In this document: in pieces, positions 6,155 through 39,692 of the stretch
Position numbering within the stretch: position 1 is the stretch's first letter
Layout: every line of letters begins with the position of its first letter
NCBI GenBank assembly: GCA_963718525.1
Contig: OY970355.1
Span: forward strand, 128,001-192,000
Reading direction: 5' to 3'
Source of the DNA: Candidatus Dormiibacterota bacterium
GTDB taxonomy: Bacteria > Chloroflexota > Dormibacteria > Aeolococcales > Aeolococcaceae
DNA length: 64,000 nt
Made by a program: the position numbers and the translations under genes
The notes under the pieces: model-generated
What the model was told of the DNA's origin: nothing
The model's input: the letters and a program-made list of their open reading frames with translations, nothing else
Databases searched by the model: none

Positions 6155-6366
6155 CGTTGGCCTCCCGTTCCCCGTGATGTTGACGTGAAGCACTGGACCC
6201 CACGGATGCGGCCATTATGCTGGGGTCGCACCAGCGATAGCCCCTAGCTCACGGGACACCTGCCCGAGGCGCACGTGCTTGCTTGGATCGCGGCCTCAGA
6301 CCTCGGTGTCGTGGGGCCTCTGGGGACATCACCCTCGCCTGGGCCGGCGTCTTCTCCCAGCGCGCT

Positions 6367-6510
6367 TCAGAGCCCGATCCAACCTGCGCCGCCGAAGACG
6401 TAGCTCAGGAGAAGGACTACCGCGATAAAACCGAGCGGCACGGCCACAACCACCAGCCAGAACACGCGATGGCGAGCTCGACGCACGTCATGATCGGTGG
6501 GGAAGGCCAC
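6367..6510 (-). CDS. putative single-TM microprotein (47 aa)
   Basis: GTG..TGA ORF read by hand: basic stretch followed by FWLVVVAVPLGFIAVVLLLSYVFGG. Confidence 0.4.
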   Translation of the reverse strand: MAFPTDHDVRRARHRVFWLVVVAVPLGFIAVVLLLSYVFGGAGWIGL

Positions 6511-6603
6511 GAGGCAATGGTAGACGCCGACGTCCGCGTTGCAAGCGCGTCAGGGGTGATTGACGGACCCTGGCCTGACCTGCCCACCCCTTCCTCGGCA
6601 ATC

Positions 6604-7123
6604 TCAGGGCGCGGTCGTCACGCTCACGTTCTGGATCGAAACGCCCCACCGATCGAAGATCGGCGTGATGAGTTCACTAACGGAGCTGGCGATACGCTCC
6701 GAATCGGTCGAGCCAGCGCCCGGCGTAGCTGCCCTCACAGCAACCCGAAGCTGCTGAATGATCGCAGTAGGTAAATCTGCAACTGCCATGGCAGCAACGC
6801 GTGGATCCTCCGCCTTGCGGCTTGCCCGCACCCAGTACGTCGGTTCCGCTTCCGGTGCACTCGACACTGGCCAGTCACCCGTGTCGATCTCCGCAGGCAC
6901 GACTGCCAGGCGACCATTTGGGAGGAAGTGCCACCCGGGAGATAGAACCGCTTTTGCCGACGGCGTGATCGAACGGTGATCGGGAACGACGCCGAACCAC
7001 CCGGTCGGAACATGGCGGACCGACCATCGAAAACTCGCTTGTCTTCTTATGTCGCGAGGCGACCGCAGGCGCAGCGGAGGATGCTGAGCACGAGGTTGCT
7101 GCGGTTCAGGGGTATCGCCCATG
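6604..7123 (-). CDS. hypothetical protein (cassette)
   Basis: ORF between two sites; probable start MGDTPEP. Confidence 0.5.
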
Positions 7124-7434
7124 CCGCGATGATGCATCAAGGAACAGAGATCTGCTCCAAGATACATTGCCGGATGCTGGCCTGTTCTGGTACGCCATCG
7201 CTTGACCGCTTATGTCTTCAGGTCAACCTCCGGCGTTCACCCCGGCGCCAAGTTGGGCAGCGTCTTCGAAATCCAGTCACACGGCGCAGCCGGTCCATCA
7301 TCAGCCTGCTCGCCAATGGATTAACAGCAACGATATGCTTGACGCACCGGCCTAGGAACTCGGTGGGTGGAGCTTCTAGCAATCCGCGCCGCGCTAAAGC
7401 CGGAATTGCTCCGGAATGGGGAGTTGACCGAGAC

Positions 7435-7635
7435 CTAGTGCGTCAAGAAGCTTTCGGCCCGCTTCTTACGCCGGTGCTCGTCTAAGAAGGATAGGGGCGC
7501 TGCAATCGCGAGGCATATCCCCCCGCCAAGGAAGAGAGACCGTATCGGTTCCAAATTCCCAAAGATAACCAGCACGAGAACCGCTACGCCGAACGCACCT
7601 GCCAGTACGGACAACCCCCGGGCTATGGCTCGCAT
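7435..7635 (-). CDS. small 2-TM membrane protein
   Basis: Two hydrophobic helices and a basic C-terminus. Confidence 0.6.
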   Translation of the reverse strand: MRAIARGLSVLAGAFGVAVLVLVIFGNLEPIRSLFLGGGICLAIAAPLSFLDEHRRKKRAESFLTH

Positions 7636-8080
7636 TCACACATCGTAGTCATTGGATCGTCCCCACGTCCACAGTTGTCCCTCGAACGGTGCGTCAGACC
7701 GGGGGCAAGGCTGGCGGCGCGGGAGGCGGTAGTGGTGGCGGCGGCGGGTTCGGCTTGCGCGTCGTGGCAATGGCGATCACTACCCCTACGATCGCCACGA
7801 CCACGATCACAAGCAGCAAGAAGAGGACGTAGTTCGGGGTTACTAAGGTGATCTCCGGATCCTAACCTACCGTTCCGACAACATAGGCAGGGTCATCGTA
7901 CGTAGCTACGTTACTGGCCTTCCGCTTCTCTCCATCGATGTGGACCCGACGGCATGCCCTCTGGGTACATTTGCCGATGCTCGCCTGCGGAACCTTTGCC
8001 TCCTTAAGCGTCTCCGAGTGGGCCAGGGCATTTACGGCGCCGAGTTGGTTGGTACTACCGTCGACCTGCCGCCCGCGCCC

Positions 8081-8521
8081 TTAAGTGTTGGACACCGGGC
8101 GAGGCGGGAGCGGAACCGTCGCTCCGTAGCTGCCGTCGACGATGGTGACATTCACTTGCTCGCTGGCATCGAGCGCTGTAGGGACCTGAATGATGGTCGT
8201 GGTCGCGGCTAGGTCGGCTGGACAGGCGGCGCCGTCGGGCGGGAGGTCGGTGGTCACCGTCACCGTGAGCGCGTCGTTCCCGGACACTTTGAGTCCACTT
8301 GGAAGGCCCGGGCACCCCGAGCTACCCCAAGTCAGCACCGCCATCTGGCCGGCTGTCACCCATAGGGCATTGTCGCGAACTCGCTCAGGAGACAACGTCA
8401 CGCCGGGTGGCAGACCGAGGTAGTGGCGCACCAGCCACGGAGGACTGGTTTCAGCACCGCAGGCGCCGGCGACAATTATCAGAACCGTCCCGGCTAGGAC
8501 GGACAAGAAACGCGGATTCAC
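8081..8521 (-). CDS. putative lipoprotein
   Basis: Signal peptide with AGAC lipobox; WGSSGCP and ACPADL motifs. Confidence 0.75.
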   Translation of the reverse strand: MNPRFLSVLAGTVLIIVAGACGAETSPPWLVRHYLGLPPGVTLSPERVRDNALWVTAGQMAVLTWGSSGCPGLPSGLKVSGNDALTVTVTTDLPPDGAACPADLAATTTIIQVPTALDASEQVNVTIVDGSYGATVPLPPRPVSNT

Positions 8522-8660
8522 GTGTGTAACGTATGCGAGACCAACCCATCGGCGAGGTTCAGGCGAGTGGATGACCCGTTGGCGAGCTAACTATGACTGC
8601 TATCGACCCCACGAAAGTGAGGTTGCGTAGCCCGGAACCTTCCAGGTTCGGCCTGCGCAG

Positions 8661-8689
8661 CTCAAGGTACATTTGCGGACACTGGCCTG
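8661..8689 (+). repeat. representative cassette-boundary motif
   Basis: CTCAAGGTACATTTGCGGACACTGGCCTG, preceded by a TGAG...CTCA hairpin starting near 8618. Confidence 0.9.
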
Positions 8690-8701
8690 AGGAGGACCCG
8701 C

Positions 8702-11252: not shown

Positions 11253-11969
11253 TCAGTCTACGGTCCAGTTCGTGCGAGACAAGTCTTGGAGTGATCCGGA
11301 CACACTATCGGCATGGGAATCCAGGGGCATTGGCTCCTCGATCGCCACGCGGATAGCCGACATTCCCAATTGTTTCGCGGGAGCGATGTCGAAGCACTCG
11401 GAGTTCCCGATCATCAGACACGCTTTGGAAGGGACCCCTGCTCGTTGCAGGGTCAGGTCGAAGAATCCTTTGCTCGGCTTGCGCCACCGAATATCGACTG
11501 ATGAGGCGACGACGTCAATTAGGCCGTCAAGCTCAAACGACCGAAAATCCGCCCAGTAATCGGCTTCGGTTCGCCAGATGGCGTTCGAGGCGATCACAAT
11601 CCTCGCGCGTCGCGCCTTGAGGACTGTTAGCAAAGCTCGTGCCCCCGGCAACAGGTGGGTAAAGGCCCTAGCCGGCAGGCAACTAGCCGAGCGGATTCTG
11701 TCAGCCTCGATGCCGGTAACGTTGGCGCAGCCCGTCGCCTCGTCAATTGCTTCCCACACATCGAAATACGAGGCGCCTACTGCTCGATCAATCACACGAT
11801 TAAGCTGCCTGCAAAGTTCGGCAGCTCGGTCCTCCGGGACACCCGCGCGGACCAAGCTTAGTCTCCATTCCGCGCTGTCTCGATCGACTGGGTTCAGCAC
11901 CGGCTGCGACCAGAGGGTTCCGCCCACGTCGACCCGTACGGCTCGCGGACCCGAGCTCGTGTCTTGCAA
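11253..11969 (-). CDS. HAD-superfamily hydrolase
   Basis: DVGGTL motif I, ASN, RKP, MIGNS..DI. Confidence 0.85.
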   Translation of the reverse strand: MQDTSSGPRAVRVDVGGTLWSQPVLNPVDRDSAEWRLSLVRAGVPEDRAAELCRQLNRVIDRAVGASYFDVWEAIDEATGCANVTGIEADRIRSASCLPARAFTHLLPGARALLTVLKARRARIVIASNAIWRTEADYWADFRSFELDGLIDVVASSVDIRWRKPSKGFFDLTLQRAGVPSKACLMIGNSECFDIAPAKQLGMSAIRVAIEEPMPLDSHADSVSGSLQDLSRTNWTVD

Positions 11970-12256
11970 GGATTTCAGCGATTCTAGTCACCTGCTCGGC
12001 GAGCGCGAATTCCTCGCTGGACCGCCTCGCCTCGCACGCCGCGGTCGCAACGCCGGGTACATTCCCGGACCCTGGCCTGAGCGACGGTGGTCGGCTTGGT
12101 GGGAGGAACGGCCGGGCCCCGCTCAAGGCTCTCGGCAACACACGCGGCTCAGCGGAAACCGCTCTTCAAACCGGAACGTGATGAGCTCGATCCCAAGCCC
12201 TTCCTGAGAGTGACCGTTACCTTCTGGCCCCCTGCCGGGGTCATATGTGCAGAACA

Positions 12257-12798
12257 TGGCAACGGACGAGCAGGAACTGCCCATGGGGAGGTCGGTCGGC
12301 GTGAGTTCCGAGGAGACCGCGAGCCACGACGAGGCGGCTTTCGAGAAGGCGCTCCTCGCCGCCCTACGACCGGCATTTCGAAGTCTCCGTGCCATCGGCC
12401 TGTCCGAAGAGGACGCTGCCGACGTACTGCAGGATGCCTCGATCCGTGCGTGGCGGCACCGCTCCCAGCGACAGGGTGACTTCGCGGCGTGGTTCATTGC
12501 CATCGCCTATCACGAGGCGCGGCGCCCGCACCGCCGCTGGCCCGCAATCCCGGTCCTATGGCAAGGAGCGAGGAGCTCATCGGAGCAGGAGTGGCGAAAC
12601 GATGACCTCGACCGCGCTCTGGCGCGGCTGCCGACGCGGCAGCGGACCGCGATCTCCCTGCGCTACGGCAGCGACCTGACGATTCTCGATGTCGCCCGCA
12701 CATTGCGCATCAGTGAGCCTGCAGCGAAGCAGTTGCTTGCTAGAGCACGCGAGTCACTCCGTCGAACGCTGTCATCGATTCCGAGAGGTGAGCCATGA
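12257..12798 (+). CDS. ECF sigma factor
   Basis: DAADVLQD..RAW, FAAW, LARLP.RQR..LRY, region-4 HTH. Confidence 0.9.
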
Positions 12799-14081
12799 GC
12801 GATGACTTCGATGTGATGTTGGGGACACTGAATTCCCGCCCCCTCACTCCGGCTGAAGAGGGCGCGCTCGCTCGGGTGGAGCTGTTCGTGTCTCGGCACG
12901 ACTTCGCGACGCCCCGACATCCGAGACTTGCGCTCGAGCTCCTCGTTGCCGGCGTCGTCGCCGCGGTGGCGATCACGTTGATCGTGGCGCTCACCCATCA
13001 TTCGGTTCCAACGCCAGCGCCCGCGGGCCACACTCCGGTGCCCATAGCCTCCGCAACCGCGAGCCCTCCCGCTCCAACGAGCCCGCGTCTGGGGCCGGCT
13101 ATTCCGTTGCGCATCACGCAGCAACTGAGCCTTGGCAGCTTCCAGGCCAACGCGATAACCGTTGGTCTGGGCAGCGTGTGGGTTGCAGCTCATAGTCCGG
13201 TATATGGGGACACGGGCAGACTTTTTCGCGTCGATGCGTCGTCGTCTCGCCAGACTGGATACTGGACGGTCGGGGGAGACCCGGAGGCGGTTTCGGCCGC
13301 CGGCAGCTACGTCTGGGTGGCCAACGGCTTCGGCGATGGTTCGCGCGTGTTGCCCGATCAGAACACGGTCATGCAGTTCAACGCTGTCACCGGAGCTCTG
13401 GTGCACGTGTATCGAATCACGAGCCCCATCGCCCTGGTGGCGAATGGAAGCGGCGTACTCGTCGTGTCCTCGCGTACGCAAAATGGTCCGACCGACATAT
13501 ATCTCCTGACCGCCGGACGGTCATCGCTCGTCGCGACCGTGGCGGGGATCTTGCAGGGTCCTTCGCTGTCGGCTGAGGCCGCACTCGCCGTCTGTGGTGG
13601 CCAGGTATACCTGGGCGTGAGCGAGCTGTCTGCGAGCGGACTTCAGACCATCAACATCTACGCGGTCCGCCTGGGCGGCGGACCTGTGCGGAGCCTCGCG
13701 ACGATTCAGCGTGCGTACTGGCCGGTGATGACATGCGATACCAACGCCCTCTACGTCTTCGATGGGGCCGGAGATCTTCCGGTGCTGGTGAGCCCTGTGG
13801 ACGGCAGGACGCGCACGATGCCCGAAGGGTCGGGCGCTTCGGCAGCCGCATTCGAATCCGGGTTCATCTGGCAATTGCACAACGCTTATGGTCCCTCGGG
13901 ATCGCAGGGATCGCAGGGATACCTGTCCGCGCTGGACCCGAACACTGGCCTGGAGTCATCGTCCCGCCTCGCGATTCCGGGCACTGCGTCGTCCGAGGTG
14001 TTCCTACTCGCCCCGGTTGCGTCCGGCTTGTGGGTCGTCGGCGGCAACGAGGCCCTGCTTCTGCACGTGACTTTCGGCTAG
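12795..14081 (+). CDS. putative anti-sigma factor: TM plus extracellular beta-propeller
   Basis: ATGA overlap with the sigma gene; TM, Pro linker, SVWVA repeats. Confidence 0.75.
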   Translation: MSDDFDVMLGTLNSRPLTPAEEGALARVELFVSRHDFATPRHPRLALELLVAGVVAAVAITLIVALTHHSVPTPAPAGHTPVPIASATASPPAPTSPRLGPAIPLRITQQLSLGSFQANAITVGLGSVWVAAHSPVYGDTGRLFRVDASSSRQTGYWTVGGDPEAVSAAGSYVWVANGFGDGSRVLPDQNTVMQFNAVTGALVHVYRITSPIALVANGSGVLVVSSRTQNGPTDIYLLTAGRSSLVATVAGILQGPSLSAEAALAVCGGQVYLGVSELSASGLQTINIYAVRLGGGPVRSLATIQRAYWPVMTCDTNALYVFDGAGDLPVLVSPVDGRTRTMPEGSGASAAAFESGFIWQLHNAYGPSGSQGSQGYLSALDPNTGLESSSRLAIPGTASSEVFLLAPVASGLWVVGGNEALLLHVTFG

Positions 14082-15075: not shown

Positions 15076-15645
15076 ATGGAACGCATGCGTGACCGACTTG
15101 CCCGATGGAGCCAGGCAACCATCTACCCTGACATGTGGGCTGACCCGAATGACGATCCCCGCAGCAGCGAAGGAGTCGGTGGCGACGGCGAGCTAGCGAC
15201 GCTGCAGGACTACCTGACGAGGTACCGGATGACCCTGCGGATGAAGTGCGAGGGCCTCTCTCCGGAACAACTGGCCCGTCGGTCGGTTCCGCCGTCGACG
15301 ATGTCGCTGCTGGGGCTGCTCCGCCACCTCACCGAAGTGGAACGGGATTGGCGCAACTGGATCAGCGACGGCGATTCGCTACCGAAGCTGTACGGCGAGC
15401 GGGACGCGGACTTCGAGGGTGCTGTTGCCGAACAGGCGGAGGTCGATGCTGCATACTCCGCTCTCGCGCGCGAGCAGGCCGGGACCGACGCCGTGCTGGC
15501 CCGACACCTGGATCTCAGCGAGCGTCTGGGGAAGGACGGAATCGCCGTTCGCGAGCTGATGGTGCACAGGATCGAGGAGTACGCCCGTCACTGCGGGCAC
15601 GCCGACCTCTTGCGCGAGTGTATCGACGGAAGGGTCGGCCAGTGA
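15076..15645 (+). CDS. DinB/DUF664 family protein
   Basis: SLLGLLRHLTEVER.W and EEYARHCGHADLLRE.IDG. Confidence 0.9.
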   Translation: MERMRDRLARWSQATIYPDMWADPNDDPRSSEGVGGDGELATLQDYLTRYRMTLRMKCEGLSPEQLARRSVPPSTMSLLGLLRHLTEVERDWRNWISDGDSLPKLYGERDADFEGAVAEQAEVDAAYSALAREQAGTDAVLARHLDLSERLGKDGIAVRELMVHRIEEYARHCGHADLLRECIDGRVGQ

Positions 15646-18011: not shown

Positions 18012-18395
18012 CTAGGCCTGCTCGGGAAGAGGGATCGAATGCCACAGCACCAGCTTCCAGGCGCCGCCGTCGCGACGGAGAATCAGCGTGGTCGGAGCCG
18101 AGATGTGCTGCGGGGTGCCGTGCATCGTGTAGTCCTGATCGATCCAACAGGTGAGCAGCCCTATGTCCCCCCAAATGCGCTCCTCCGCATCTCGAAGTTG
18201 CGTTTCCACATGACTCACTGCGGGCATCAGCTCGCGAAGGAAACTGGCTACGTCGCCTCTGCCGCGCAGCCAGCGTCGCGAGCCCTCGTCGACACTCTGG
18301 ACGTCCTCCGTCAACATCTGCATCATCCGATCAGCATCCAAGGCATCAAGCGCCGCGAAGAAGTCGGTTGCGACACTATTCAGTTCGTCTGGCAT
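18012..18395 (-). CDS. SnoaL/NTF2-like protein
   Basis: FFAALDALD, T.ILRR.GG.WKLV.WHS. Confidence 0.8.
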   Translation of the reverse strand: MPDELNSVATDFFAALDALDADRMMQMLTEDVQSVDEGSRRWLRGRGDVASFLRELMPAVSHVETQLRDAEERIWGDIGLLTCWIDQDYTMHGTPQHISAPTTLILRRDGGAWKLVLWHSIPLPEQA

Positions 18396-18590
18396 CAAAC
18401 GGTTCCTCCATGGTGGTCGGCGGTTGCGAAGTGTCCATGTATCGGCATCGCCTGTCAATAGTGCTCGATGGTGGCGACTGCCATGACAGGCGACGACCTC
18501 CGGCATGACCGCGGGGCGAGCCACTCGGGCGGTCGCCGCCCGGGAGGTCGGCCCTGGTCGCGCGGCTATCGGGGCCTTCGGCCCAACGTC

Positions 18591-18857
18591 ATGCTTGGTA
18601 CTGTGCGGCATGCAACGCAGGAAGACCTTGATCAGGTCGAGCCACTACTGGTGGAGCTCCGCAAGCTTCCCCAGTTGCGAGAGCGCAAGCGTGGTTCCTT
18701 CTCGAGGGGCTCCCGGCCGTTTCTTCACTTCCACGAAGACGGCGGCGAGCTTTACGTCGACGTGAGACTCGACGGCGCGTTCCGTCGCGCGAAAGTCACC
18801 AGCGGCAAGGACCAGGCCGATCTCCTCGCACGTGTGCGCGGGGAGCCACTGGAGTGA
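18591..18857 (+). CDS. conserved hypothetical protein
   Basis: LRERKRGSF..FLHFHED..LYVDVR. Confidence 0.7.
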   Translation: MLGTVRHATQEDLDQVEPLLVELRKLPQLRERKRGSFSRGSRPFLHFHEDGGELYVDVRLDGAFRRAKVTSGKDQADLLARVRGEPLE

Positions 18858-18869
18858 TATCACTGACCG

Positions 18870-24526: not shown

Positions 24527-24811
24527 AACACAACGCTACACCACCGGTCGACCCGTCTCAACCCTACTGATTCGTGTGAGCCAGTCGTGCGCCGCGAAAG
24601 TGCCGCCGGAGCTGCCTGACTCAAGGTGGCTTTGCGGATATTGGCGTGAGGAGCCGCTGCCCCGTTCGGACAACTCACCGCAGCACATGTATGACCCATT
24701 AGCGCACCCCGCTCCGCTGAAGATGGCCTAACCCGCGTCGTCGACCTCCAAGCCGAACTAGCATCGACTTATGAGGTTGACCCTAACGATCAGGTCATCA
24801 ACCATCGCCAG

Positions 24812-25186: not shown

Positions 25187-25298
25187 CGCTGGGCATCGGG
25201 AATATCCATGAATAGTGGGGCGCGTCCTCGAGGTACATTCGCGGATGCTCGCATGCGCAAGAGCCTTCCGCGTTCGGTGGAAAACAACGCTCCTACGA

Positions 25299-26930: not shown

Positions 26931-27326
26931 ATGACGCTGCGTAAGCTCAATCCCTCTGCACTGCCGACCCCTACCGGCTATTCACAGGTTGTCGTGGCAG
27001 CCGGCTCCCGAACGGTCTTCATCGCCGGACAGGTGGCGCTCGATCGAGACGGCGGACTTGTCGCACCCGGGGACGTCGTCGGCCAGGCTCGCCAAGCGTT
27101 CGCGAATATGCGAATTGCGATCGAGGCAGCCGGAGCGGCAATCGACGATGTGACCAAGATAACCTGGTACGTGGTCGGCTACCGGCCGGAGTGGCTTCCC
27201 GAGCTGGCGGCCGCCCGCAATGAGGTGCTCGGCGGGCATATGCCAGCGAGCACATTGGTGGGTGTAGGCGCTCTCGCCCAGGACCACTTTCTCGTTGAGG
27301 TCGAAGCGGTAGCTGTGATCGACTAG
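26931..27326 (+). CDS. RidA/YjgF family protein
   Basis: GYSQVV, VFIAGQV, PASTLVGV.AL, LVEVEAVA; AAGGAG RBS. Confidence 0.92.
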   Translation: MTLRKLNPSALPTPTGYSQVVVAAGSRTVFIAGQVALDRDGGLVAPGDVVGQARQAFANMRIAIEAAGAAIDDVTKITWYVVGYRPEWLPELAAARNEVLGGHMPASTLVGVGALAQDHFLVEVEAVAVID

Positions 27327-27637
27327 ACGAAGAGACGCTGTACTGAAGCGACGTTCGGCCGATGAGGCGCATATGGGGCCCCCGTTGTTCGGTTTGCCCC
27401 GTGCACCGATGTATCTCCCACTGGTACCGCTCCAGCGACATTGGCGGATGCTCGCGTGTCCGCCCAACTTCTGCCTGCGGAGGTGAAATGTTGCCCTGCC
27501 AGGCGCGGGTAATAGCCTGACGGCGACAGCAGCGTGCACGCGCCCGATGGGCGAAAATGCGCCCGGGTCCGAGCTACTGAACCTCCGGCGAGGCCGTCCA
27601 GTTTCACTGACGACACCGGGCTGCCCCAGTCCTAGTC

Positions 27638-28129
27638 TCAACTCGCGGTTTCGTTGGTGGCGACTGCCCGAGCGAGCTGCCCGAGATGCTCTTGCTCATG
27701 CGACGCCATGTCGCCGGCGAGTCGCAACATCGACACCTCGCCAAAGTCCGTCTGGACGGAAGACGTCCACTCGTGGTTGGAGAGTCCGAGCAGGAGACCG
27801 ACCAGTTCGCGGCGCCGCAGAGTGAAGGCTCGGACCTGATCAGCCGCCGACAGGCCAGCCCTGGCCAGCAAGTCGCCGTATGTGCGCTCGTCCAGTCCGA
27901 GATGGACACCGTCGGGGCGTATCAGCCAGTTCCAAATCCGAGACGCAACGATCAGATCACTAGCGCGGACGTGCCTGAGGACTTCCAGCGGCGACCAGTC
28001 ATCGGGAGCTGGGCGACGACCGAACTCGGCCTCACCTAAGTGGGAAAGGGCAGCTTCGAATTGCTGGGGGCTTTCCGCCAGGATGGCGATACAGCCCTCG
28101 ACCGCATGCGACTCTGGCTCAGACCTCAC
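27638..28129 (-). CDS. DinB family protein
   Basis: DWSPLEVLRHV..HEQEHLGQL. Confidence 0.8.
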   Translation of the reverse strand: MRSEPESHAVEGCIAILAESPQQFEAALSHLGEAEFGRRPAPDDWSPLEVLRHVRASDLIVASRIWNWLIRPDGVHLGLDERTYGDLLARAGLSAADQVRAFTLRRRELVGLLLGLSNHEWTSSVQTDFGEVSMLRLAGDMASHEQEHLGQLARAVATNETAS

Positions 28130-28381
28130 TCGCTGATTCTGTCTGATCTTCTGCTATCAAAGATGGAACGCCGGATACGCCGCGGCCCGAAAACGTACCC
28201 GCCTCTGGGGACATTGGTGGATGCTGGCATGGGCGAGCGACCCGGAGATTGAACTCCGCCATCGCTGCGATCTTTCGCTGCCGCCACCGGAGACGGGATC
28301 GCGGTCGCGACGCGATAGCGGGGATGCAACACTTCAAGTGGGGCCGCATGGTTACGAGCGCGGCCGAACTAAGCTGGCGGG

Positions 28382-28861
28382 ATGGCCGAAGAGCGACCAG
28401 GTCGGCTGACCGCGCTTCGACGCGGTCTTCACCGCCTAACGCGGGAGCATCCAGCGGCGTGGGCCGGGCTCGGGATCACGTGCCTTGCTGGCCTGGTGAT
28501 CGTGGCAGCCTTCCCCGGCGCCTCTTCGGGTTCAAAACGCGTCAACCCTAAGGTTTCACTCCCGCCGGGTATGGGCGCCGTAGTCGGTGGCATCGAAGCG
28601 TGCTATGACAGCGGTCCTCCACCGGGCGGCTACCCGTGGGTGGCGGGTTCGGTTGCTCTGTATGCCGCGGGGGACCGCGATTTCCTCAAGCCAATCGCAA
28701 TTGGTACCGCAGCACCCAACGCAGATTTCGTCGTGCTGGCTTCGCCTGGTGACTACGAACTCGCGGCCTACGCGGGCCTTTCCAACCCGGCGGTCTCAGT
28801 GACTGTGCGGAGCGGGAACATTACCTTCCAAGATCTTCGCTCGAATGGTGGATGCATCTGA
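28382..28861 (+). CDS. membrane-anchored beta-sandwich protein
   Basis: TM followed by GAVVGGIEAC..PGDYEL; resembles the 24812 protein. Confidence 0.6.
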   Translation: MAEERPGRLTALRRGLHRLTREHPAAWAGLGITCLAGLVIVAAFPGASSGSKRVNPKVSLPPGMGAVVGGIEACYDSGPPPGGYPWVAGSVALYAAGDRDFLKPIAIGTAAPNADFVVLASPGDYELAAYAGLSNPAVSVTVRSGNITFQDLRSNGGCI

Positions 28862-29044
28862 GTTCGTGGCTCAAGGGACATCGGCGGATGCTGGCGTGCG
28901 CTGCGATCATCGTGTTTGGCCTCGATGCTGGTTCCTAAGCGCGGCCTCGTACACGCTTCCGACTGGAATCACCGTTGCTGCTACGGATCGCGTTCAGCCC
29001 CGCGTGGTTCGCGCTGGGGACCAGGCCCGAGCTAGCATCGACCC

Positions 29045-29308
29045 ATGGGCACACTCGCGAACATTCTTCGGGTAGCGTCCGTGCCGGTGGGTGTCTTGAT
29101 TGGTCTGTGGACCGCGCACCTTACAAGCCTTCCGAGCAGCTACCGATGCCCAGTTGACGCTTTCTGCCTCCCCTTGAATTTCTATTTGAGGCCCACCTTC
29201 GCGATGTGGCAATGCGTCTTGTTCGGTGCAGGCGCTGCTGCCGTCTTGCTCCTAATGTCCTTTGCGGTGGCGCGCTTGCCGAGCGCAAGGCCGCTCACCG
29301 CGGCCTGA
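29045..29308 (+). CDS. small 2-TM protein with Cys-loop (family A)
   Basis: LRVASVPVGVLIGLWTA..C.....C..TFAMWQCVLFGAGAAA. Confidence 0.75.
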   Translation: MGTLANILRVASVPVGVLIGLWTAHLTSLPSSYRCPVDAFCLPLNFYLRPTFAMWQCVLFGAGAAAVLLLMSFAVARLPSARPLTAA

Positions 29309-29553
29309 AGGCGTTATCCGTCGCCTCGTCTCGTCCAAACAGCCCAACTCCGTCTCGTCCAGCCACCTTGAGTGCGTTCATCTCTGCGGCATAGAACGGC
29401 TGGCCGACGTTGGCTCAAGATACATTCGCGGACCCTGGCTTGCGGTAGAGGGCTGTGCCTCGGGCGCATGGGCACGCCCCCCGCGTCGACCCACGCGGAG
29501 CCCAGCCAGTCAGCGTGGACCCTGGCGGCACGGCGATCGGCACAATCGGGATC

Positions 29554-30219
29554 ATGTCAACACCGGTAGCGTTCTCATGGAGTGCAGGGAAAGACTCAGC
29601 CTTCGGTCTTCGGACGCTGCTCCGTGATCCCAGGTACGAGGTCCGGGCGCTGATGACGACCATCACGGAGGGCTACGACCGGGTGAGCATATCGGGCGTG
29701 CGCGAGGAGCTTCTTGACCGGCAGGCCTCAGCGCTCCAGTTGCCATTGATCAAGGTGCGGATTCCCCCCGCTTGCACGACGGAGGAATACGAAGAGCGCT
29801 TGGCGACGGCGCTGGCCGGCGAAGAGCTCAGTGGCGTTGAGCACGTTGCTTTCGGGGACCTCTTTCTGGAGGACGTTCGGGCGCATCGGGAGGAGCGCCT
29901 GAGCCTGGCTGGCAAGCACGGTCTTTTCCCGCTCTGGGGCCGGGATACAAACGCGCTGGCTCGAGACATGATAGCCAACGGATTTCGCGCCTTCGTCGTA
30001 TGCGTCGATCCTGAGGCCCTCGATGCGTCCTTCGCGGGGAGACCGTTCGACGGCACGTTCCTACGCGACCTGCCCAAGGGCGTCGACCCTTGCGGCGAGA
30101 ACGGCGAGTTTCACACCTTCGTATGGGCGGCGCCGATGTATCAGAACCCGATTCCGTGCCGTACCGGTGAGGTGGTCATCCGCGACGGATTTGTGTTCTG
30201 CGACGTTATTCCACATTGA
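29554..30219 (+). CDS. PP-loop ATPase, diphthamide-synthase-like (Dph6/DUF71)
   Basis: SWSAGKDS, FGDLFLED, DPCGENGEFHTFV. Confidence 0.9.
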   Translation: MSTPVAFSWSAGKDSAFGLRTLLRDPRYEVRALMTTITEGYDRVSISGVREELLDRQASALQLPLIKVRIPPACTTEEYEERLATALAGEELSGVEHVAFGDLFLEDVRAHREERLSLAGKHGLFPLWGRDTNALARDMIANGFRAFVVCVDPEALDASFAGRPFDGTFLRDLPKGVDPCGENGEFHTFVWAAPMYQNPIPCRTGEVVIRDGFVFCDVIPH

Positions 30220-33614: not shown

Positions 33615-33779
33615 GGCCCACCTCCTTGGTCGGGCAAAAAGCGCCCGTTTGACCAGATCGATACGGGTGACCCGCACGATCGGTTCGGAGTCATAGTCGT
33701 TCGAGTGGGCCTCTGTCAAGCATTCGGACGAGGTCTGTCCCCCATGGATTGAGCGCGGCGCGTGTCATTCTCGTGGAGA

Positions 33780-34291
33780 TGAGTCGAGCGATGGCGCGAC
33801 CCGCCACTCGAGCGGTTGATGACGCGTTCTTCGAACGCTTCTTCGCCGACACCTGCCAGATGGCGGTTGGGGCGGTCGCGGTGACCACTGGGGACGTCGG
33901 CGCCGCTGAAGACGCCGTCCAGGAGGCGTACCTTCGAGCCCATCGCCGCTGGGCGAGAGTCTCGACACTGGATCGCCCCGACCTTTGGATCGTCAGGATC
34001 GCCACGCGGATTGCGGTCTCCAACTGGCGGCGCCACCGGCGCGAGACTCACCTCAGTAGCGAGTTGCAAGCCGAGGTCGCCGACAGCATCACCCGGATCT
34101 GGACCGAGTGGGGGCTCGAGGCGCTCAGCCCCAAGCAGCGCCGAATGGTGATCCTCCACCACATGCATGGACTTCCCGTCGCCGACGTGGCGAGAGCTGC
34201 GGGGTCCTCGACAGAGACGGTGCGGACTCACCTGAAGCGTGCTCGCGTGCGCCTTCGCACCCGATTCTCCGATGAGGATCGTTATGACTGA
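33780..34291 (+). CDS. ECF sigma factor
   Basis: AEDAVQEAYLRA..RW, LSPKQR, TVRTHLKRAR. Confidence 0.9.
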
Positions 34292-35099: not shown

Positions 35100-35381
35100 A
35101 TGGCCGACACCGACTTTCTTACTGCTGGTCAGGCGGCTGCGCTCATTGGCATTTCGCGATCCACTGTCCGCCGGGCTGTTGCTCAGGGACACCTGCTCGC
35201 GTGGCATACGCCTGGAAAGCATCTCCGTGTCGTCCGCGAAACGTGCCTCGAGTTTGCGCGCGACTTGGGGCGCGTTGACCTCGTGGGCCGCCCGAACGGT
35301 AACCCGTCGCCGGAGTGGCTTCCCGAGCTGGCGGCCGCCCGCAACGAGGTGCTCGGCGGGCATATCCCAGCGAGCACATAG
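35100..35381 (+). CDS. excisionase-type (HTH_17) DNA-binding protein fused to a RidA fragment
   Basis: LTAGQAAALIGISRSTVRR..TPGKHLR, then PEWLPELAAARNEVLGGH. Confidence 0.75.
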   Translation: MADTDFLTAGQAAALIGISRSTVRRAVAQGHLLAWHTPGKHLRVVRETCLEFARDLGRVDLVGRPNGNPSPEWLPELAAARNEVLGGHIPAST

Positions 35382-35582
35382 GTCGGTGTAGGCGCTCTCG
35401 CCCAGGACCACTTTCTCGTTGAGGTCGAAGCGGTAGCTGTCATCGACTAGACGAAGAGACCCTGTACTGAAGCGACGTTCGGCCGATGAGGCGCATATTG
35501 GGCACCCGCTGTTCGGCTTGCCCCGTGCACCGATGCACCTCCCACTGGTACCGCTCGAACGACATTGGCGGATGCTCGCGTG
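35309..35582 (+). repeat. near-identical copy of 27185-27458 (ridA 3' half, spacer and boundary site)
   Basis: 274-bp colinear match ending at the motif TG; TTG changed to TAG at 35379. Confidence 0.95.
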
Positions 35583-35625
35583 GACAACTCAGCCGTCATT
35601 CGGCTGCGAGCGGATTCTGTGGGCG

Positions 35626-36786
35626 TCAGCTGCTGAATATGTAAACGGCGCCGAAACCAGAGTTGGCGTTTGGAGCACCTACGAAGATGGCGCCCGTGGA
35701 CAACGCTACCGACAAGCCAAACTCATCTCCCGCCGCGAAGCCGTGAAGAGCGAGCCTCGGGGCGCTGTCCCATCCGGACCGAGACTTGGCAAACTCATAG
35801 GCCGCACCAGCGGTGAATCCGTTGATGGCGCCGACCCCAACGCGGCTTCCCAATACAGTGACCGAGGCCCCGAACTCGGACGCAGCCGTTCCGTAGACGG
35901 CAAGTGTCGGAGTAGTCGTCCATCCTGCAGCGCCCCTCGTATACACATACGCAGCACCGTCGTTATCGTTGTGAAATATCGCACCCACGACGAGGGTTGT
36001 GGCATCCATAGCTAACGAAGCGCCAAATTGAGAATATGTCGAGTGATCGGCGAGGGTTGCGGTCGGAGTCGTATCCCATCCCGCACTCGACTTGGTGAAG
36101 ATGTAAGCGGCTCCCTGACATGATTTAGCGCACGGAGCACCAACCGCGGCGAAGTTTCCGCTAAGAGCGACGGACATCCCGAAACCCGCAAACCCGGACC
36201 CGATACGGGGGAAGACTGCAGTCGGCGCCGTCTTCCAACCGGTGGAGGTGTTTATGAAGACATACGCTCCGTGACCAATCGTGCCGGCCAGGACGGTGCT
36301 CCCCGAAATCGCGACCGACCACCCGAAGCTCGCGAAGGTCTCAGGTCCTGTAAACACAACGGTCGGGGTCGTTTCCCATCCGCTCGCTGTCTGGGTGTAG
36401 AGATATACGGCCCCGGTACTGGAATTACGACCGGGTGCGCCGATCGCCACCGTCGCTCCCGAAATTGCGACAGATGCCCCGAACTCGTCACCCGCCGTAA
36501 CCCCGTGAAGCACTGCGGTTGGGGTCGTGTTCCATCCAAGCGAGGTCTTCGTGTAGAGATACGCCGCGCCGGCATTCGACCCTGCACCCGCGGCGCCGAT
36601 CACCGCGCTTGTACTTGACACCGCAACTGCGTTCCCAAAGTCGTCGCCAGTGGAGGCCCCGCTCAGCGTTGCGAGCAGGTGCCCAGGAACTGCGGTTGCA
36701 CCGGTCGCCGCGCTGGCAGACTGCGAGCCGCCGATGACGCCCATGGTCATCGACGCGGCAACACCGGCTGCGAGTAGAAACCGCAT
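35626..36786 (-). CDS. secreted FG-GAP repeat beta-propeller protein
   Basis: Signal peptide; repeated FG.SVA.SG..GAP..GAAY units. Confidence 0.9.
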   Translation of the reverse strand: MRFLLAAGVAASMTMGVIGGSQSASAATGATAVPGHLLATLSGASTGDDFGNAVAVSSTSAVIGAAGAGSNAGAAYLYTKTSLGWNTTPTAVLHGVTAGDEFGASVAISGATVAIGAPGRNSSTGAVYLYTQTASGWETTPTVVFTGPETFASFGWSVAISGSTVLAGTIGHGAYVFINTSTGWKTAPTAVFPRIGSGFAGFGMSVALSGNFAAVGAPCAKSCQGAAYIFTKSSAGWDTTPTATLADHSTYSQFGASLAMDATTLVVGAIFHNDNDGAAYVYTRGAAGWTTTPTLAVYGTAASEFGASVTVLGSRVGVGAINGFTAGAAYEFAKSRSGWDSAPRLALHGFAAGDEFGLSVALSTGAIFVGAPNANSGFGAVYIFSS

Positions 36787-37683
36787 GCCCATCCCCCTCA
36801 CTGCTTGAAAGAGGGTTCAGCCTATCAGGTTGCTGGATCGTTTCCTCCCATTGGCATGTCCTCCCCAAGAAGCTCGTGTTGGTAAAGCCGGGTGTCTTAG
36901 TGTCTGGGGTGCTGCTTCGAGCTATGAGTACATTCGCGGATGCTGGCGTGCGTCAGTGTCATTCGGTTCCGCGAACCGGCCCAGCCCCGCGCGGCCTATC
37001 GGAGGCCCGGGCGGCGCCGGTCCAACCGCAGATCGACGTTCTCGATCGGCTCGAGTGGCACATCCGCCGCCGCCGAGGCGAGCAGCGACGGGGGTGCAGG
37101 CGCTAGCGGGGACGGTCGTCCGGAGCCCTCGGCCCGGGAATCCGGGCCTATGTCCCAGGACCTGCCGAAGGATGGAAACTGGCGCGATCTAGCGCGAGCC
37201 ATCCGTAGGATCCGGTGAGCGCCGCGCGATATGCTGTGAACAGCTCCTCGCCGAAGGCGGCGCACAACCGTGTCAGGGTGCGAGAGGAGCGCATAACCCG
37301 TATATGGCATTCGCCAATTCTGACTCTTCTTAGAGTTTGCCGCTGTGTTGCGCTGCAGCCATCGAGGATCACTTCGGGATGCTGGCCTGGGCAGCGCTCC
37401 TCTCCGCAGTCGGTTGCGTTTCTTGCGGAATCAGCCGAAACCAGAGATACGATCCTGCGAGACCCGGACGCTCCCTTCGTCGGCGAGCTGACGTGTAAGA
37501 GTCGACACGTACCGGGGTGCCCGTCAAGGGATATTTGCGGACCCTGGCCTGGCCGATTTTCGCTTCCTCGGCCGGTCGCCGATGCGGCCAGTTGGTCACT
37601 CGATTGAGCGGGCCGAACGTGCCACGGCACGGCCTCGACCAAAGCCGCTCAAGCGGCATGGGGCAGCTGGCTGGTAAGGCCTC

Positions 37684-37944
37684 TCAGCCTGCCTTGTGTG
37701 ATCTCGCCGACGGCAGCCGCGTGATCGCGAAGGACAGTAGGAGCAAGAAGGCTGCGGCACCTGCACCAAACAAGGCGCATTGCCAGATCGCAAAGGTGGC
37801 CCTCTCCGAGAGTTTGTCGAGGCAGATCTCTCCCCCAAGGGAGCATTGGGTCGGGTAGGTCACGAGCTGCGCGGTCCACAGACCAATCGCGACCCCGACC
37901 GGCGCCGACGCCACCCGAAGGACAAGCGCGAGCAGGCGCCTCAT
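37684..37944 (-). CDS. small 2-TM protein with Cys-loop (family A)
   Basis: LRVASAPVGVAIGLWTA..C......C..TFAIWQCALFGAGAAA. Confidence 0.75.
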   Translation of the reverse strand: MRRLLALVLRVASAPVGVAIGLWTAQLVTYPTQCSLGGEICLDKLSERATFAIWQCALFGAGAAAFLLLLSFAITRLPSARSHKAG

Positions 37945-38186
37945 GCAGTAATGCTATCGCCGCGGCTCGTCTGCTGAGACCCCGGGGGGGAGTAACCCTG
38001 TGTTTGGGGTTTGCGTCCTCACGGTTTAGTGAGGCTGCGCAGCGCTCAGGGTACATTCACGGATGCTCGCCTGCGCGAAGGGCGCTTCGCTTCGACTAGG
38101 CTGACAGCCGAGCTAGAAGACTGGAACGAGGCGCAGTCCATGTCGACACCGTCGCTGCGTCACGTTGAAGCGCCACGTCCGCCGTA

Positions 38187-38738
38187 TTACTCCGCAGAGT
38201 TCTCGACAGGGTCGGGTCCGAACGTTTCCTCCATCCATGATCCGGTGCTCACCGATCCAACGCTTATAGACCTTGGGAGAGCTGGGCGGAAGCCAGTCAC
38301 CAGGCAGATAAATACCACGGTCCAGATCACCGAGAGCAAGCGCTCGATCATCAACACCCCGCCAGGTTCGGCAATGACGTTGACGACCGTCGCCGCTGCT
38401 TCCACCCCAAGCGCACTTGCGGTTAGCGCCACGCTCCACTGCATGCGGGCCGAAAGAGCAAGACCCCCCATGGCTGCAAACGCAGCAGCGCAGCTCACGA
38501 TGAACGCAGACGCCGCTTCAACTCGCACGGCGACGGGATAGGCAAACGGCTCGCTCGGAAAGCTGACAAACCCGCTGGGAGGTATGTTCAAGACCTCGCC
38601 GAGAGACACGTTTGCCAGCAGCAGTCCAGAAGTGGCGCTGAGCAGCGAGAATCCAAACACCACGAGGCCGAGCGTCACAGGATCTGGAGTCCACCCGTGA
38701 GTTGGGAATCGCCTCCACACAGCAGGGACTCTAGCGAC
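38187..38738 (-). CDS. membrane protein
   Basis: 4 TM segments; start uncertain. Confidence 0.55.
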   Translation of the reverse strand, partial: VARVPAVWRRFPTHGWTPDPVTLGLVVFGFSLLSATSGLLLANVSLGEVLNIPPSGFVSFPSEPFAYPVAVRVEAASAFIVSCAAAFAAMGGLALSARMQWSVALTASALGVEAAATVVNVIAEPGGVLMIERLLSVIWTVVFICLVTGFRPALPRSISVGSVSTGSWMEETFGPDPVENSAE

Positions 38739-38958
38739 CAGCGATTCTTCCGTGGGGGATGTCTGGTCGTTACGGAAGCGACTAAACCTGACCTGGGGCG
38801 TCGTTGCCTCGATGACTTCGGCCGTCGCTACGAGACATTTACGGATGCTGGCCCGAGCGAGCAGGTTGCCTCCAGGCCGACAGCGGCGGTTCCGCGAGAC
38901 AGCAGCGTGCACGCGCCACACGCGAGAGGGTGAGTCGTTCTCGCGGCGAGGGCCTGCG

Positions 38959-39489
38959 TCAGTGCCAGAGGAGACGGAGGGTCGCATTCATGCCCACTCG
39001 CGTGCCGCGAAAGCTCACCACCACCATTGCGAGCGCAGCGATTGCCGCTGCAAGTCCGCCACCAACAAAGGGATAGAAGCCGAAGGTGATCGGCGGTGGC
39101 GCTCCGACGCCAGTGAAGCTCCCTGGCCAGGTTACAGCCACGTACGTGGATATCAGGGAAGCTGCCAATGTAACCACGGCGGTGATCCGCCGGCAAATCC
39201 TGGCGAGATGAGTCGCGGAGGCTATCCCCACTACGACGAGAAGCACGAGGACAAGCTGCCCACGGCCACCGGCACTCGCAACGAGACTTTCCGTGAGGGG
39301 CGGCGCAGGGGGGCCGCACACCAGGCAGTCTCCCCAGGTGATCGCAACAAAAGGCAGGAATGCCGCCCAACTCATCACCGCGACCGCGCCCAGACAGACC
39401 GTCGCTGGGACGATGGCGGCCCACGTCGCTCGAGCACGCACCCGTGCATCATCGCGTCCCGTCTTCGGAGGACCAATCGGCGTAGCCAA
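38959..39489 (-). CDS. membrane protein
   Basis: 4 TM segments with a CLVC loop. Confidence 0.6.
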   Translation of the reverse strand: MATPIGPPKTGRDDARVRARATWAAIVPATVCLGAVAVMSWAAFLPFVAITWGDCLVCGPPAPPLTESLVASAGGRGQLVLVLLVVVGIASATHLARICRRITAVVTLAASLISTYVAVTWPGSFTGVGAPPPITFGFYPFVGGGLAAAIAALAMVVVSFRGTRVGMNATLRLLWH

Positions 39490-39692
39490 GATGTCACGAC
39501 ATTAGGGATGTCGACCGTTTTCGCCTACGACGCGGCGGCCGGCCGCGCACACTTCCGCGCGGGGGCACGCCCATGGGTGACGCGGCAGGGGTCGAGCTTC
39601 CCGGACCGTCAAGAGGCATTGGTGGACCCTGGCCGGGACAAACATCCTGGCGTCGGCAGAGGTAGGGTTCGCCAACTGTAGACTTGGCGTGA

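Follow-up and report, generated by a model that had tools for sequence, protein, structure and literature searches.

Integrons are regarded as the only dedicated bacterial platform for stockpiling and reshuffling single-gene cassettes. Their cassettes are co-oriented with the recombination sites that delimit them. According to an excerpt of the IntegronFinder 2.0 paper, integrons are nearly absent from several large phyla (PMC9024848). Here we describe an array in a 64,000-nt stretch of contig OY970355.1, from a Candidatus Dormiibacterota bacterium; this whole stretch is called the window below. We consider it likely that the region between 6317 and 40334 is an array of about 30 mobile gene cassettes, each ending in a recombination site of about 50 bp of the large serine recombinase (LSR) type, and that this integron-like array is driven by an LSR. 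The array appears to resemble an integron and to use different machinery. The LSR as recombinase class is an addition to an earlier, sequence-only reading of the window, which had proposed an integron-like array delimited by non-attC sites and a system of site-specific gene capture and shuffling.

Other described systems share parts of this logic. In streptococci, integrative and conjugative elements (ICEs), integrative and mobilizable elements (IMEs) and cis-mobilizable elements (CIMEs) undergo tandem accretion, in which elements stack at one att site, internal att sites are kept and recombinase-less neighbours are mobilised in cis. In pdif modules, short recombination sites that alternate in orientation and use XerC/XerD delimit small cargo. 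Composites of the staphylococcal cassette chromosome (SCC) hold recombinase-less modules that are mobilised in trans at one chromosomal docking site, as excerpts of two papers describe (PMC7029739, PMC6222049). For serine integrases, an excerpt of Rutherford et al. 2013 (PMC3783163) gives an attP half-site that spans 25 bp, attL and attR sites that each contain one half-site of each kind, and half-sites of attP and of attB, told apart by a 5-bp shift of the outer (zinc-ribbon-domain) motif. In the same excerpt, characterised serine integrases recombine attP with attB, or attL with attR together with a directionality factor. A hybrid site is not recombined there with attB or with an identical hybrid site.

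The array is marked by a motif that recurs on one strand. The pattern of the sequence-only reading, ACATTNNCGGANNCTSGCNTG, has 27 matches at up to two mismatches in the 64-kb window, from 6557 to 40312 and on the + strand in 27 of 27 cases; chance gives a mean of 0.11 matches and a maximum of 1 (100 dinucleotide-preserving shuffles). A profile made from these 27 copies recovers the same 27 (E 1e-10 to 1.4e-5) and adds weak + strand candidates at 6318, 21238, 22186, 24630, 37377 and 39608 (E 0.006–0.16). Profile matches on the − strand are very weak, with E 0.067 or worse. No strong copy was found in 1–6300 or 40400–64000 by pattern, profile and position weight matrix (PWM) scans, and the genes found in the flanks are of housekeeping type (PHP/PolX-like, URO-D, ferrochelatase, MMPL and an AMP-binding enzyme). 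The earlier count of about 25 clear and about 7 degenerate copies, always on the + strand and with no clear copy in the housekeeping flanks, is borne out by the 27 strong copies and six weak candidates. The array that was placed at 6262–39517 is likewise confirmed, although its end was set slightly short, since the last site reaches 40334. Conservation of the motif spans about −9 to +42 relative to the A of ACATT, wider than the approximately 29 bp first described. Distances from site to site in the window range from 162 nt to 6.1 kb, and the 215 intervals of the window and related loci have a median of 702 nt (range 69 to 6512 nt). The G+C content of the array, 0.62–0.65, is slightly lower than that of the flanks.

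The site has two unequal arms around a nearly invariant centre. In the consensus of 266 copies, T occupies +19 in 254 and G occupies +20 in 257. Every array site is composed of a long arm that is strongly conserved, CTCRRGKTACATTNGCGGAYSCTSGCN, the central TG, and a short arm that is only weakly so, NGCSAG..TCCYCTCCCYNG. In inverted form, the short arm loosely repeats the long one, but its outer box stands 5 bp nearer the centre. Complementarity of the inner arms about an axis at +19.5 reaches 0.417 (compared to a mean of 0.268 with a standard deviation of 0.036, or about 4 standard deviations), and an additional dyad axis lies at +16.5. The outer long arm is complementary to the right arm at a 5-bp shift only (0.369, compared to 0.21–0.29 for 23 other shifts), and the best-supported pairs at this shift are −6C/+40G, −3G/+37C and 0A/+34T. 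Positions +15 and +18 vary freely. Because the 5-bp arm offset matches the signature of attP and attB half-sites in the excerpt of PMC3783163, the array site reads as a long (P-type) arm, TG and a short (B′-type) arm. The site thus has features expected of LSR att sites, namely two half-site types offset by 5 bp and combined in hybrid sites, and a central non-palindromic dinucleotide, TG, as the crossover on the dyad axis at +19.5, with the caveat that an axis at +14.5 scores higher.

Sites were typed over the window and the related loci with four PWM models (long-short, short-short, short-long and long-long). The sites of the window, all on the + strand and identified by pattern match, profile scan and PWM, are as follows, with the PWM typing score in bits.

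6317–6363, +: head site, attB-like, with short (B-type) left arm, TG at 6340–6341 and short (B′-type) right arm; 33.9 bits
6548–6599, +: array site 1, long arm, TG 6576 and short arm, with degenerate ACATT box; 31.9 bits
7155–7206, +: array site, TG 7183, where homology to L067 begins; 42.9 bits
7958–8009, +: array site, TG 7986, left limit of a cassette common to L096; 49.4 bits
8660–8711, +: array site, TG 8688, right limit of that cassette common to L096; 45.0 bits
9096–9147, +: array site, TG 9124; 38.4 bits
10600–10651, +: array site with CG, not TG, at its centre; 22.5 bits
11191–11242, +: array site, TG 11219; 54.2 bits
12050–12101, +: array site, TG 12078; 38.6 bits
14279–14330, +: array site, TG 14307; 48.1 bits
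16439–16490, +: degenerate array site, TG 16467, where homology to L080 ends; 31.0 bits
21226–21272, +: weak internal site, inner arm alone conserved, best as short-arm type, with L007 homology from 21240; 14.9 bits
22183–22237, +: weak array site with 1-nt insertions, found by profile, with homology to L025, L011 and L040 from 22191
22951–23002, +: array site, TG 22979; 27.6 bits
23602–23653, +: array site, TG 23630; a block 99.2% identical to L096 ends at 23634; 50.2 bits
24190–24241, +: array site, TG 24218; 40.0 bits
24619–24670, +: weak array site, TG 24647, limit between L104 and L086 blocks; 17.5 bits
25226–25277, +: array site, TG 25254; 46.9 bits
26014–26065, +: array site, TG 26042; 44.8 bits
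26408–26459, +: array site, TG 26436; 43.7 bits
26779–26830, +: array site with CG centre, two mismatches, profile E 1.4e-5, below the PWM threshold
27429–27480, +: array site, TG 27457, where the internal duplicate 27185–27458 ends; 40.6 bits
28202–28253, +: array site, TG 28230, left limit of a cassette common to L007; 47.2 bits
28869–28920, +: array site, TG 28897, right limit of that cassette common to L007; 45.4 bits
29413–29464, +: array site, TG 29441; 42.9 bits
35553–35604, +: array site, TG 35581; together with the 250 nt upstream, its long arm is a duplicate of the RidA cassette end; 44.6 bits
36921–36972, +: array site, TG 36949; 38.1 bits
37360–37411, +: weak array site, TG 37388, long-arm type with degenerate outer part; 21.5 bits
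37522–37573, +: array site, TG 37550; 41.0 bits
38044–38095, +: array site, TG 38072; 51.4 bits
38826–38877, +: array site with CG centre; 27.1 bits
39607–39658, +: weak array site; 22.3 bits
40283–40334, +: last detectable array site, TG 40311, overlapping the methyltransferase stop codon; 27.8 bits

Three otherwise good array sites carry CG in place of TG at the centre, at 10628, 26807 and 38854. Should the crossover dinucleotide be this centre, recombination with TG sites is expected to fail at the three, which would lock their neighbours together.

The related sequences are all metagenome-assembled and were seen as 8-kb blocks, labelled L001 and so on. A genome scan with a 24-position pattern gave at least 115 such stretches, and all cross-genome counts are lower bounds. 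The window-derived profile finds at least 211 copies in 80 of the 115 listed stretches. The other 35 hold single chance pattern matches in unrelated bacteria, for example Burkholderia, and were used as controls. The true matches fall in at least 32 assemblies named Candidatus Dormibacterota, Dormibacteraeota or Dormibacteria; a few site-bearing assemblies are labelled Acidimicrobiales, Chloroflexi, Thermoleophilia, Saccharimonadales, Acidiferrales or Solirubrobacterales. Copies are co-oriented within a locus, with up to nine per 8 kb, and the exceptions among the 80 listed loci are L028 and L066 (two converging runs). Related genomes have several separate arrays or short runs each, in either orientation on the contig. 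On the 2.18-Mb contig of L018, L042 and L100, the region around 0.8 Mb has two + copies and that around 2.17 Mb has at least nine − copies. On these counts, the site is a repeat that is widespread in Dormibacterota and locally clustered.

In single-orientation loci, the site-bearing strand has negative GC skew in 60 of the 78 listed (binomial p 2e-6), as it does in the window. This suggests that the arrays are oriented relative to replication, which is unexpected for a recombinase that acts on double-stranded DNA. The sites are also occupied by an insertion sequence (IS). An IS110-family element (DEDD_Tnp_IS110 plus Transposase_20) is found in four independent sites, in L069 near 6503, in L103 near 1335 and 3750, and in L109 near 573. 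The insertion point is identical in all four, within the long arm between GGTAC and ATT, and the element appears to target array sites specifically. IS1111-type elements insert specifically into attC sites, and IS110-family elements target repetitive extragenic palindromic (REP) sequences in other bacteria.

Comparison of the window to the loci by BLASTN, with inspection of the junctions, reveals that homology blocks between the window and other Dormibacterota species start and end at sites, while their neighbours differ. The shared units are the following.

7967–8690: shared with L096, 88.7% identity
22841–23634: shared with L096, 99.2% identity
21240–22215: shared with L007, 95.6% identity
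22191–22775: shared with L025, L011 and L040, about 95% identity
24227–24650: shared with L104, 83.6% identity
24631–25255: shared with L086 and L025 (adjacent blocks of one contig), 81–88% identity
28209–28901: shared with L007, 81% identity
26919–27338: shared with L082, 78.6% identity

The order of these units is not fixed. On the contig of L086 and L025, the counterpart of 24631–25255 is followed by the unit with a VOC gene; in the window, the VOC unit is found 2.4 kb to the left of 24631–25255. In L007, the counterparts of 37005–37390 and 28209–28901 adjoin each other. L041 has two extra units compared to L113, between sites; a search of collinear BLAST blocks for empty and occupied states returned this pair alone, plus an unrelated 310-nt indel in the IS110 gene of L069. 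Housekeeping DNA common to the window and other species is about 80% identical, so the unit with 99.2% identity points to a recent transfer of that unit.

To locate the exchange point, we compared all pairs among the 266 site copies and scored the match at each variable site position. In 29 pairs with related upstream and unrelated downstream DNA, positions −14 to +12 match at 0.69–1.0 against a background of 0.3–0.6, +15 and +18 match at 0.66, and positions from +21 onward are at background. In 17 pairs with related downstream and unrelated upstream DNA, positions from +21 onward match at 0.76–0.94, and +15 and +18 are at background. These linkage patterns place the junction between +18 and +21, at the near-invariant TG. 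By this mapping, a cassette has the strongly conserved part of the site as its 3′ end, and the next cassette starts, at 5′, with the weakly conserved part.

As in integrons, then, the array consists of discrete units that are exchanged at a fixed point of the site. The proposal of site-specific gene capture and shuffling finds support here, since units recur in other species, reordered, in blocks that end at sites. The sequence-only reading had suggested comparing cassette order between strains, and between species the shared units do stand in other orders. It had also suggested scanning this genome and its relatives, and took scattering in both orientations as evidence against itself. Local clustering and co-orientation hold, but the motif is not confined to one locus and occurs in either contig orientation. 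Several arrays per genome come close to such scattering, yet copies are co-oriented in all but two of the 80 loci and distinct head sites exist. The description as integron-like holds for cassette exchange at a fixed point; it does not hold for genes co-oriented with sites.

Site typing separates three kinds of site. Before the overlap filter, there were 294 long-short, 23 short-short, 25 short-long and 0 long-long sites; after it, 292, 23, 2 and 0, respectively, remained in the listed loci and the window. The filter took out mostly opposite-strand echoes, but also the short-long site of L019 (18.4 bits). Among short-short sites of at least 16 bits, 20 of 22 have co-oriented array sites on their downstream side alone within the locus. 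The other two are L065 3641, with no co-oriented array site on either side, and L001 6956, with array sites upstream only. PWM typing found no short-short or short-long site in the 35 control loci. The top-scoring short-short site is 6317–6363 of the window; downstream of it are 29 co-oriented array sites, and upstream there is none. Compared to the array sites, it has a left arm that is visibly shorter, by 5 nt, and a PHP-domain gene ends 440 nt upstream of it. Across the 22 head sites, which stand at differing chromosomal places, the short left arm follows a consensus of its own; it is also present in three LSR-proximal sites. In L001 and L110, the head is about 40 nt past the stop codon of an HlyIII-family gene; at the HlyIII-downstream position in the window, neither head nor array was found. 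The varied placement of the head, together with this empty position, indicates that the head belongs to variable DNA and is not a host gene target.

A candidate recombinase is encoded beside the sites in a few related loci. Screening representatives of recurrent open reading frame (ORF) families identified an LSR gene at L019:4170-5585, with the Pfam domains Resolvase, Recombinase and Zn_ribbon_recom. Its product has matches to solved serine integrases (9iu2, TP901-1) and, over 94% of its length, shares 33% identity with actinophage integrases. This LSR, a single gene of about 470 aa, has homologues in L105 (70% identity), L082 (frameshifted) and L092 (40%), and all four are co-oriented with the neighbouring sites. 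Directly before the LSR start codon in L105, L082 and L019 lies an inverted long arm, which is preceded by TG and a short left arm and so completes a short-TG-long site. L092 has a degenerate version of the inverted long arm before its LSR. The LSR gene therefore stands beside its site in L019, L105 and L082 and in degenerate form in L092, and this arrangement is absent from the window.

In L019, L105 and L082, the LSR elements extend over 2.6–3.4 kb from the short-long site to the next ordinary array site, at the array head. A short-long left end and an array-site right end form the attL ... attR layout expected from attP x attB integration. In L105 and L082, the element has in addition a gene for a rolling-circle Rep (PF23343, E 2e-16), whose translation shows HUH and YxxK motifs. 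The Rep genes, L105 374–1153 (+) and L082 4314–5056 (−), are on the strand opposite the LSR gene, and the L082 copy is frameshifted like its LSR. With LSR and Rep together, the LSR elements of L105 and L082 read as integrative mini-replicons of 2.6–3.4 kb. Besides Rep, the cargo of the LSR elements has no Pfam match. The small ORF behind the LSR is not conserved between L019 and L105, and no directionality-factor candidate was found in the LSR elements. The 64-kb window has no homologue of the LSR or of Rep.

These features suggest how such an array could be built. An LSR of the L019/L105 family, encoded elsewhere in the genome or supplied by a small element, would cut at TG and exchange DNA between sites. 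By one route, a cassette circle with a long-short site would recombine with the short-short head, regenerating the head and leaving a long-short site behind, like attI x attC. By a second route, an LSR element would dock at the head, use an array site farther from it to excise along with neighbouring cassettes, and leave these at another head. Cassette genes would carry their own promoters, because they lie in either orientation: among 177 cassettes of 300–1500 nt, 60 genes are on the same strand as the site, 67 are opposite and 50 cassettes are without a clear ORF, counts that rest on rough ORF calls based on G+C at third codon positions (GC3). The second route would need only known serine-integrase reactions, and the first would amount to new enzymology. 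A bolder reading, which we hold tentatively and regard as possible rather than probable, is that Dormibacterota evolved a serine-integrase gene-capture platform independently of integrons. Its head would be regenerated at every insertion, its LSR would insert and excise single-gene cassette circles bearing a hybrid long-short site by pairing hybrid sites with the head or with each other, and an LSR and Rep replicon of 2.6–3.4 kb would ferry the enzyme and cassettes between arrays and species. Such pairing of hybrid sites would be unlike all characterised serine integrases that we know of.

Several observations weigh against an LSR-driven cassette array. No serine recombinase is present in the 64-kb window, and the LSR occurs in only four of the 81 site-bearing sources, with the L082 copy frameshifted and the L092 copy divergent and next to a degenerate arm. 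The chromosomal data contain 0 long-long (attP-type) sites, although such sites are expected to be absent from chromosomes if they are confined to circles. The head site is not an ordinary host attB, since its short left arm is conserved at 20 or more chromosomal places. The dyad axis at +14.5 has a slightly better score (0.449) than that at TG, and the short right arm is weakly conserved. The short-arm PWM is the long-arm PWM minus five columns and so is not independent of it, although the positional result is unaffected. The pairs used in the junction analysis are few and non-independent. Finally, pairing of hybrid sites lies outside the known integrase reactions, and any growth route that needs it would be new enzymology.

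An alternative that takes the rarity of LSR genes among the loci at face value is that the sites are fossil scars, attR-type junctions from serial integrations of small LSR replicons that lost their recombinase. Cassettes would no longer be individually mobile, and differences in order would come only from descent, from deletion and from homologous recombination that joins the 50-bp repeats. The array sites share a single hybrid type, and in the excerpt of PMC3783163 canonical serine integrases do not recombine such sites with each other; several window sites are degenerate or CG-centred. We nevertheless consider this account unlikely, given that one cassette is 99.2% identical and a second 88.7% identical to the same genome (L096) while housekeeping DNA is about 80% identical to other species. 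The near-invariance of the long arm in 292 copies from many species speaks for selection on the site; head sites, too, are conserved, and 20 of 22 come first. The sites could also be used by a tyrosine recombinase, Xer-like or dedicated. They would then have a central region that takes up 6–8 bp around +13 to +22, like dif modules or Xer-exploiting elements stacked at dif. Such an enzyme would suit the direct repeats, about 30 bp long and partly dyad-symmetric (axes +14.5 and +16.5), as would the merely partial linkage of +15 and +18 to the left flank (0.66), and tyrosine recombinases occur in the window and in at least four loci. This possibility seems to us distinctly remote, because the 5-bp arm offset, the three site types and an LSR abutting an inverted long arm are serine-integrase features. 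Tyrosine recombinases normally need identity in the overlap, whereas +15 and +18, inside the putative overlap, vary freely. The only tyrosine recombinase of the window, at 47400–48554, was rejected as the array enzyme: it lies beside a tRNA-Gly gene, 7 kb past the last site, and has a low IntI score (22 bits on TIGR02249, cutoff 265, and 15.7 bits on NF011946, cutoff 435). Its weak relatives in at least four loci (L029, L036, L039 and L068) are inconsistently placed, at varying distances from the sites.

Explanations in terms of known repeats fare worse. A canonical integron array, or a cluster of attC sites lacking integron-integrases (CALIN), with unusually divergent attC sites would share the small co-oriented sites, the median cassette of 702 nt and the GNAT, VOC, DinB and RidA cargo. 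We find it hardly credible, since neither IntI nor attC R″/R′ cores (RYYYAAC ... GTTRRRY) nor co-oriented genes are found. The window contains no integron integrase, its sole tyrosine recombinase falling far short of the integron-integrase cutoff, and no recombinase lies left of the head site. The 266-copy consensus has no conserved AAC or GTT, no second enriched box exists within 120 nt upstream of the motif, and no column pairs covary as base pairs, only neighbouring positions being correlated. Hairpins seen by eye on both sides of the motif are variable. An attC-like fold was rejected for lack of covarying columns and of a conserved upstream partner box, and the earlier description of the sites as non-attC stands. 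A coding or RNA explanation was also rejected, as no consistent reading frame is visible by eye and Rfam gives no match to the motif; in 5000–48000, tRNA-Gly alone scores above the Rfam gathering thresholds. The motif might instead be a self-spreading intergenic repeat like REP sequences, bacterial interspersed mosaic elements (BIMEs) or miniature inverted-repeat transposable elements (MITEs), marking gene boundaries rather than delimiting mobile units. Its dispersal at many places per related genome, on either contig strand and in intergenic DNA, fits this view, as does an IS110-family element that appears to target it. We judge it very improbable, because there is no internal hairpin or covariation, no self-complementary unit, no terminal inverted repeats and no uniform element length. 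Local orientation is not mixed outside two of the 80 listed loci, and flanks are linked to the sites: whole units travel together with the site on their right, and homology ends at a single point in the site. The site types at the head and next to the LSR are also distinct and hold fixed positions. The modular units, the junction mapping and the site typing have already largely refuted this reading. The intervals, with a median of 702 nt and genes within them, are not the short, uniform, non-coding spacers of clustered regularly interspaced short palindromic repeats (CRISPR), and the heads, past a PHP-domain gene in the window and past an HlyIII-family gene in L001 and L110, do not lie in the 3′ end of rlmH (orfX), where SCC docks with ccrAB or ccrC recombinases.

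The cargo of the cassettes is diverse. The GC3-based gene filter was poor inside the array, and all ORFs of at least 75 aa were therefore run against Pfam, which is the basis of the following assignments unless stated.

11253–11966, −: HAD-family hydrolase (HAD_2, E 2.3e-10)
12247–14078, +: ECF-type sigma factor (12247–12795; Sigma70_r4_2, Sigma70_r2), then a 428-aa ORF with no Pfam or NCBIfam match
15076–15642, +: mycothiol S-transferase/DinB-family protein (MST, E 5.9e-37)
18012–21195, both strands: multi-gene segment, made up of the next four genes
18012–18608, −: SnoaL-like protein
18870–19856, +: ABC ATPase
19856–20674, +: ABC-2 permease
20674–21195, +: Imm5-like protein
22327–22716, −: VOC/glyoxalase-family protein, its cassette about 95% identical in L025, L011 and L040 (Pfam and BLASTN)
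23047–23562, +: GNAT acetyltransferase, its cassette 99.2% identical to that of L096 (Pfam and BLASTN)
23731–24174, +: GNAT acetyltransferase
24290–24523, −: small protein with ClpX-type C4 zinc finger, of a family in at least eight loci (Pfam and ORF clustering)
25299–25889, −: member of a recurrent family of about 218 aa, no Pfam match
26931–27323, +: RidA/L-PSP family protein, with a homologous cassette in L082 (Pfam and BLASTN)
27638–28126, −: DinB_2 family protein
29455–30216, +: Diphthami_syn_2 family protein
33749–34288, +: ECF sigma factor
35100–35378, +: HTH_17/excisionase-family DNA-binding protein (Pfam; TIGR01764, E 9.5e-10)
35626–36798, −: FG-GAP repeat protein
39693–40295, +: S-adenosylmethionine-dependent methyltransferase

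These assignments agree with the description of the intervals as holding small genes in either orientation (GNAT, VOC, DinB, RidA, HAD). Clustering of 3660 ORFs from the loci gave no family that is present in most arrays. The family of about 218 aa, without a Pfam or NCBIfam match, has two members in the window, at 25299–25889 (−) and 48410–49066 (−), and recurs as cargo in at least eight loci (L018, L109, L104, L068, L066, L009, L024 and L033). Window positions 27185–27458 and 35309–35582 are 94.9% identical, so that the 3′ part of the RidA cassette is duplicated along with its site. The copy at 35309–35582 stands at the end of a 6.1-kb segment, beside the excisionase-family gene, and the duplication suggests a cassette rearrangement or fusion. 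The small ORFs at 29045–29308 (+) and 37684–37944 (−) are paralogous, with about 72% nucleotide identity, and are opposite relative to their own sites. The same gene family has thus been packaged both ways.

Two stretches to the right of the array are of separate interest. Beyond the last site, a TetR regulator and a tautomerase-like gene (window 41611–42744) are 91% identical to L111 266–1402. L111 is a 2-kb contig labelled Solirubrobacterales, with an array site 165 nt past the TetR/tautomerase stretch. The window DNA from 40.3 to 47 kb may be an old, decayed part of the array. Further right, the segment 47128–50650 carries tRNA-Gly(ccc) at 47128–47202, then the tyrosine integrase at 47400–48554, the 218-aa ORF, a DUF4232 protein and an ECF sigma factor. 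The same pairing of tRNA and integrase is found in L068, and the segment looks like a separate tRNA-targeted island.

Compared to described systems, the array is like integrons in organization. Both have long rows of small, mostly single-gene cassettes (with a median of 702 nt here), nearly the whole site at the 3′ end of the cassette with crossover at its far edge, and a distinct head site. Both have cassettes that are common to species but reordered, similar cargo, and an IS family that inserts into the sites. The differences lie in the machinery. Integrons have IntI, and the array is without it. The array sites are conserved in a double-strand-type manner, without attC core boxes or a hairpin partner, and have serine-integrase architecture. 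Also unlike in integrons, the genes of the array lie in either orientation, so that a single array promoter is not implied, and related genomes have several arrays each.

The composite islands of SCC and SCCmec are the nearest described relatives in logic. SCC, SCCmec and the Enterococcus cassette chromosome (ECC), with CcrAB or CcrC, share with the array the LSR class, tandem modules with co-oriented direct repeats, and variable content. SCC modules measure kilobases to tens of kilobases with few per island, in the excerpts of PMC7029739 and PMC6222049, compared to about 30 units of about 0.7 kb here. SCC docks in rlmH/orfX (excerpt of PMC7029739), whereas the array heads are intergenic, are conserved themselves and occur at many chromosomal places; the phylum also differs. 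The array-associated LSR, a single gene of about 470 aa on an element of 2.6–3.4 kb, is likewise unlike SCC. Prophages that use serine integrases share the central non-palindromic dinucleotide, half-sites offset by 5 bp, hybrid flanking sites and an integrase at one end. However, a prophage leaves one attL and one attR, whereas the array has up to about 30 attR-type sites with cargo between them, and its attB-type site lies outside host genes. Composites of ICEs, IMEs and CIMEs consist of two or three large elements rather than the dozens of single-gene units seen here. Unlike pdif sites, the array sites are co-oriented and have LSR-type arm geometry. A full-text literature search turned up no account of cassette arrays of the serine-recombinase kind, or of these sites in Dormibacterota. 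What appears to be known is the serine-integrase att logic, and what appears to be new is its use in an integron-like cassette array.

If this reading is true, an uncultured soil phylum came to the strategy of integrons by way of a serine recombinase, and its genomes hold several arrays each, with cassettes that cross species. Standard integron finders would then miss a large pool of mobile accessory genes. The arrays would offer a testable case of array growth without folded single-stranded sites, and possibly a serine integrase with unusual pairing rules together with natural site variants; such enzymes are widely used in genome engineering. If the bolder reading also holds, Dormibacterota would have another kind of integron, unrelated to the first in mechanism, and a natural serine integrase whose rules of site pairing are relaxed.

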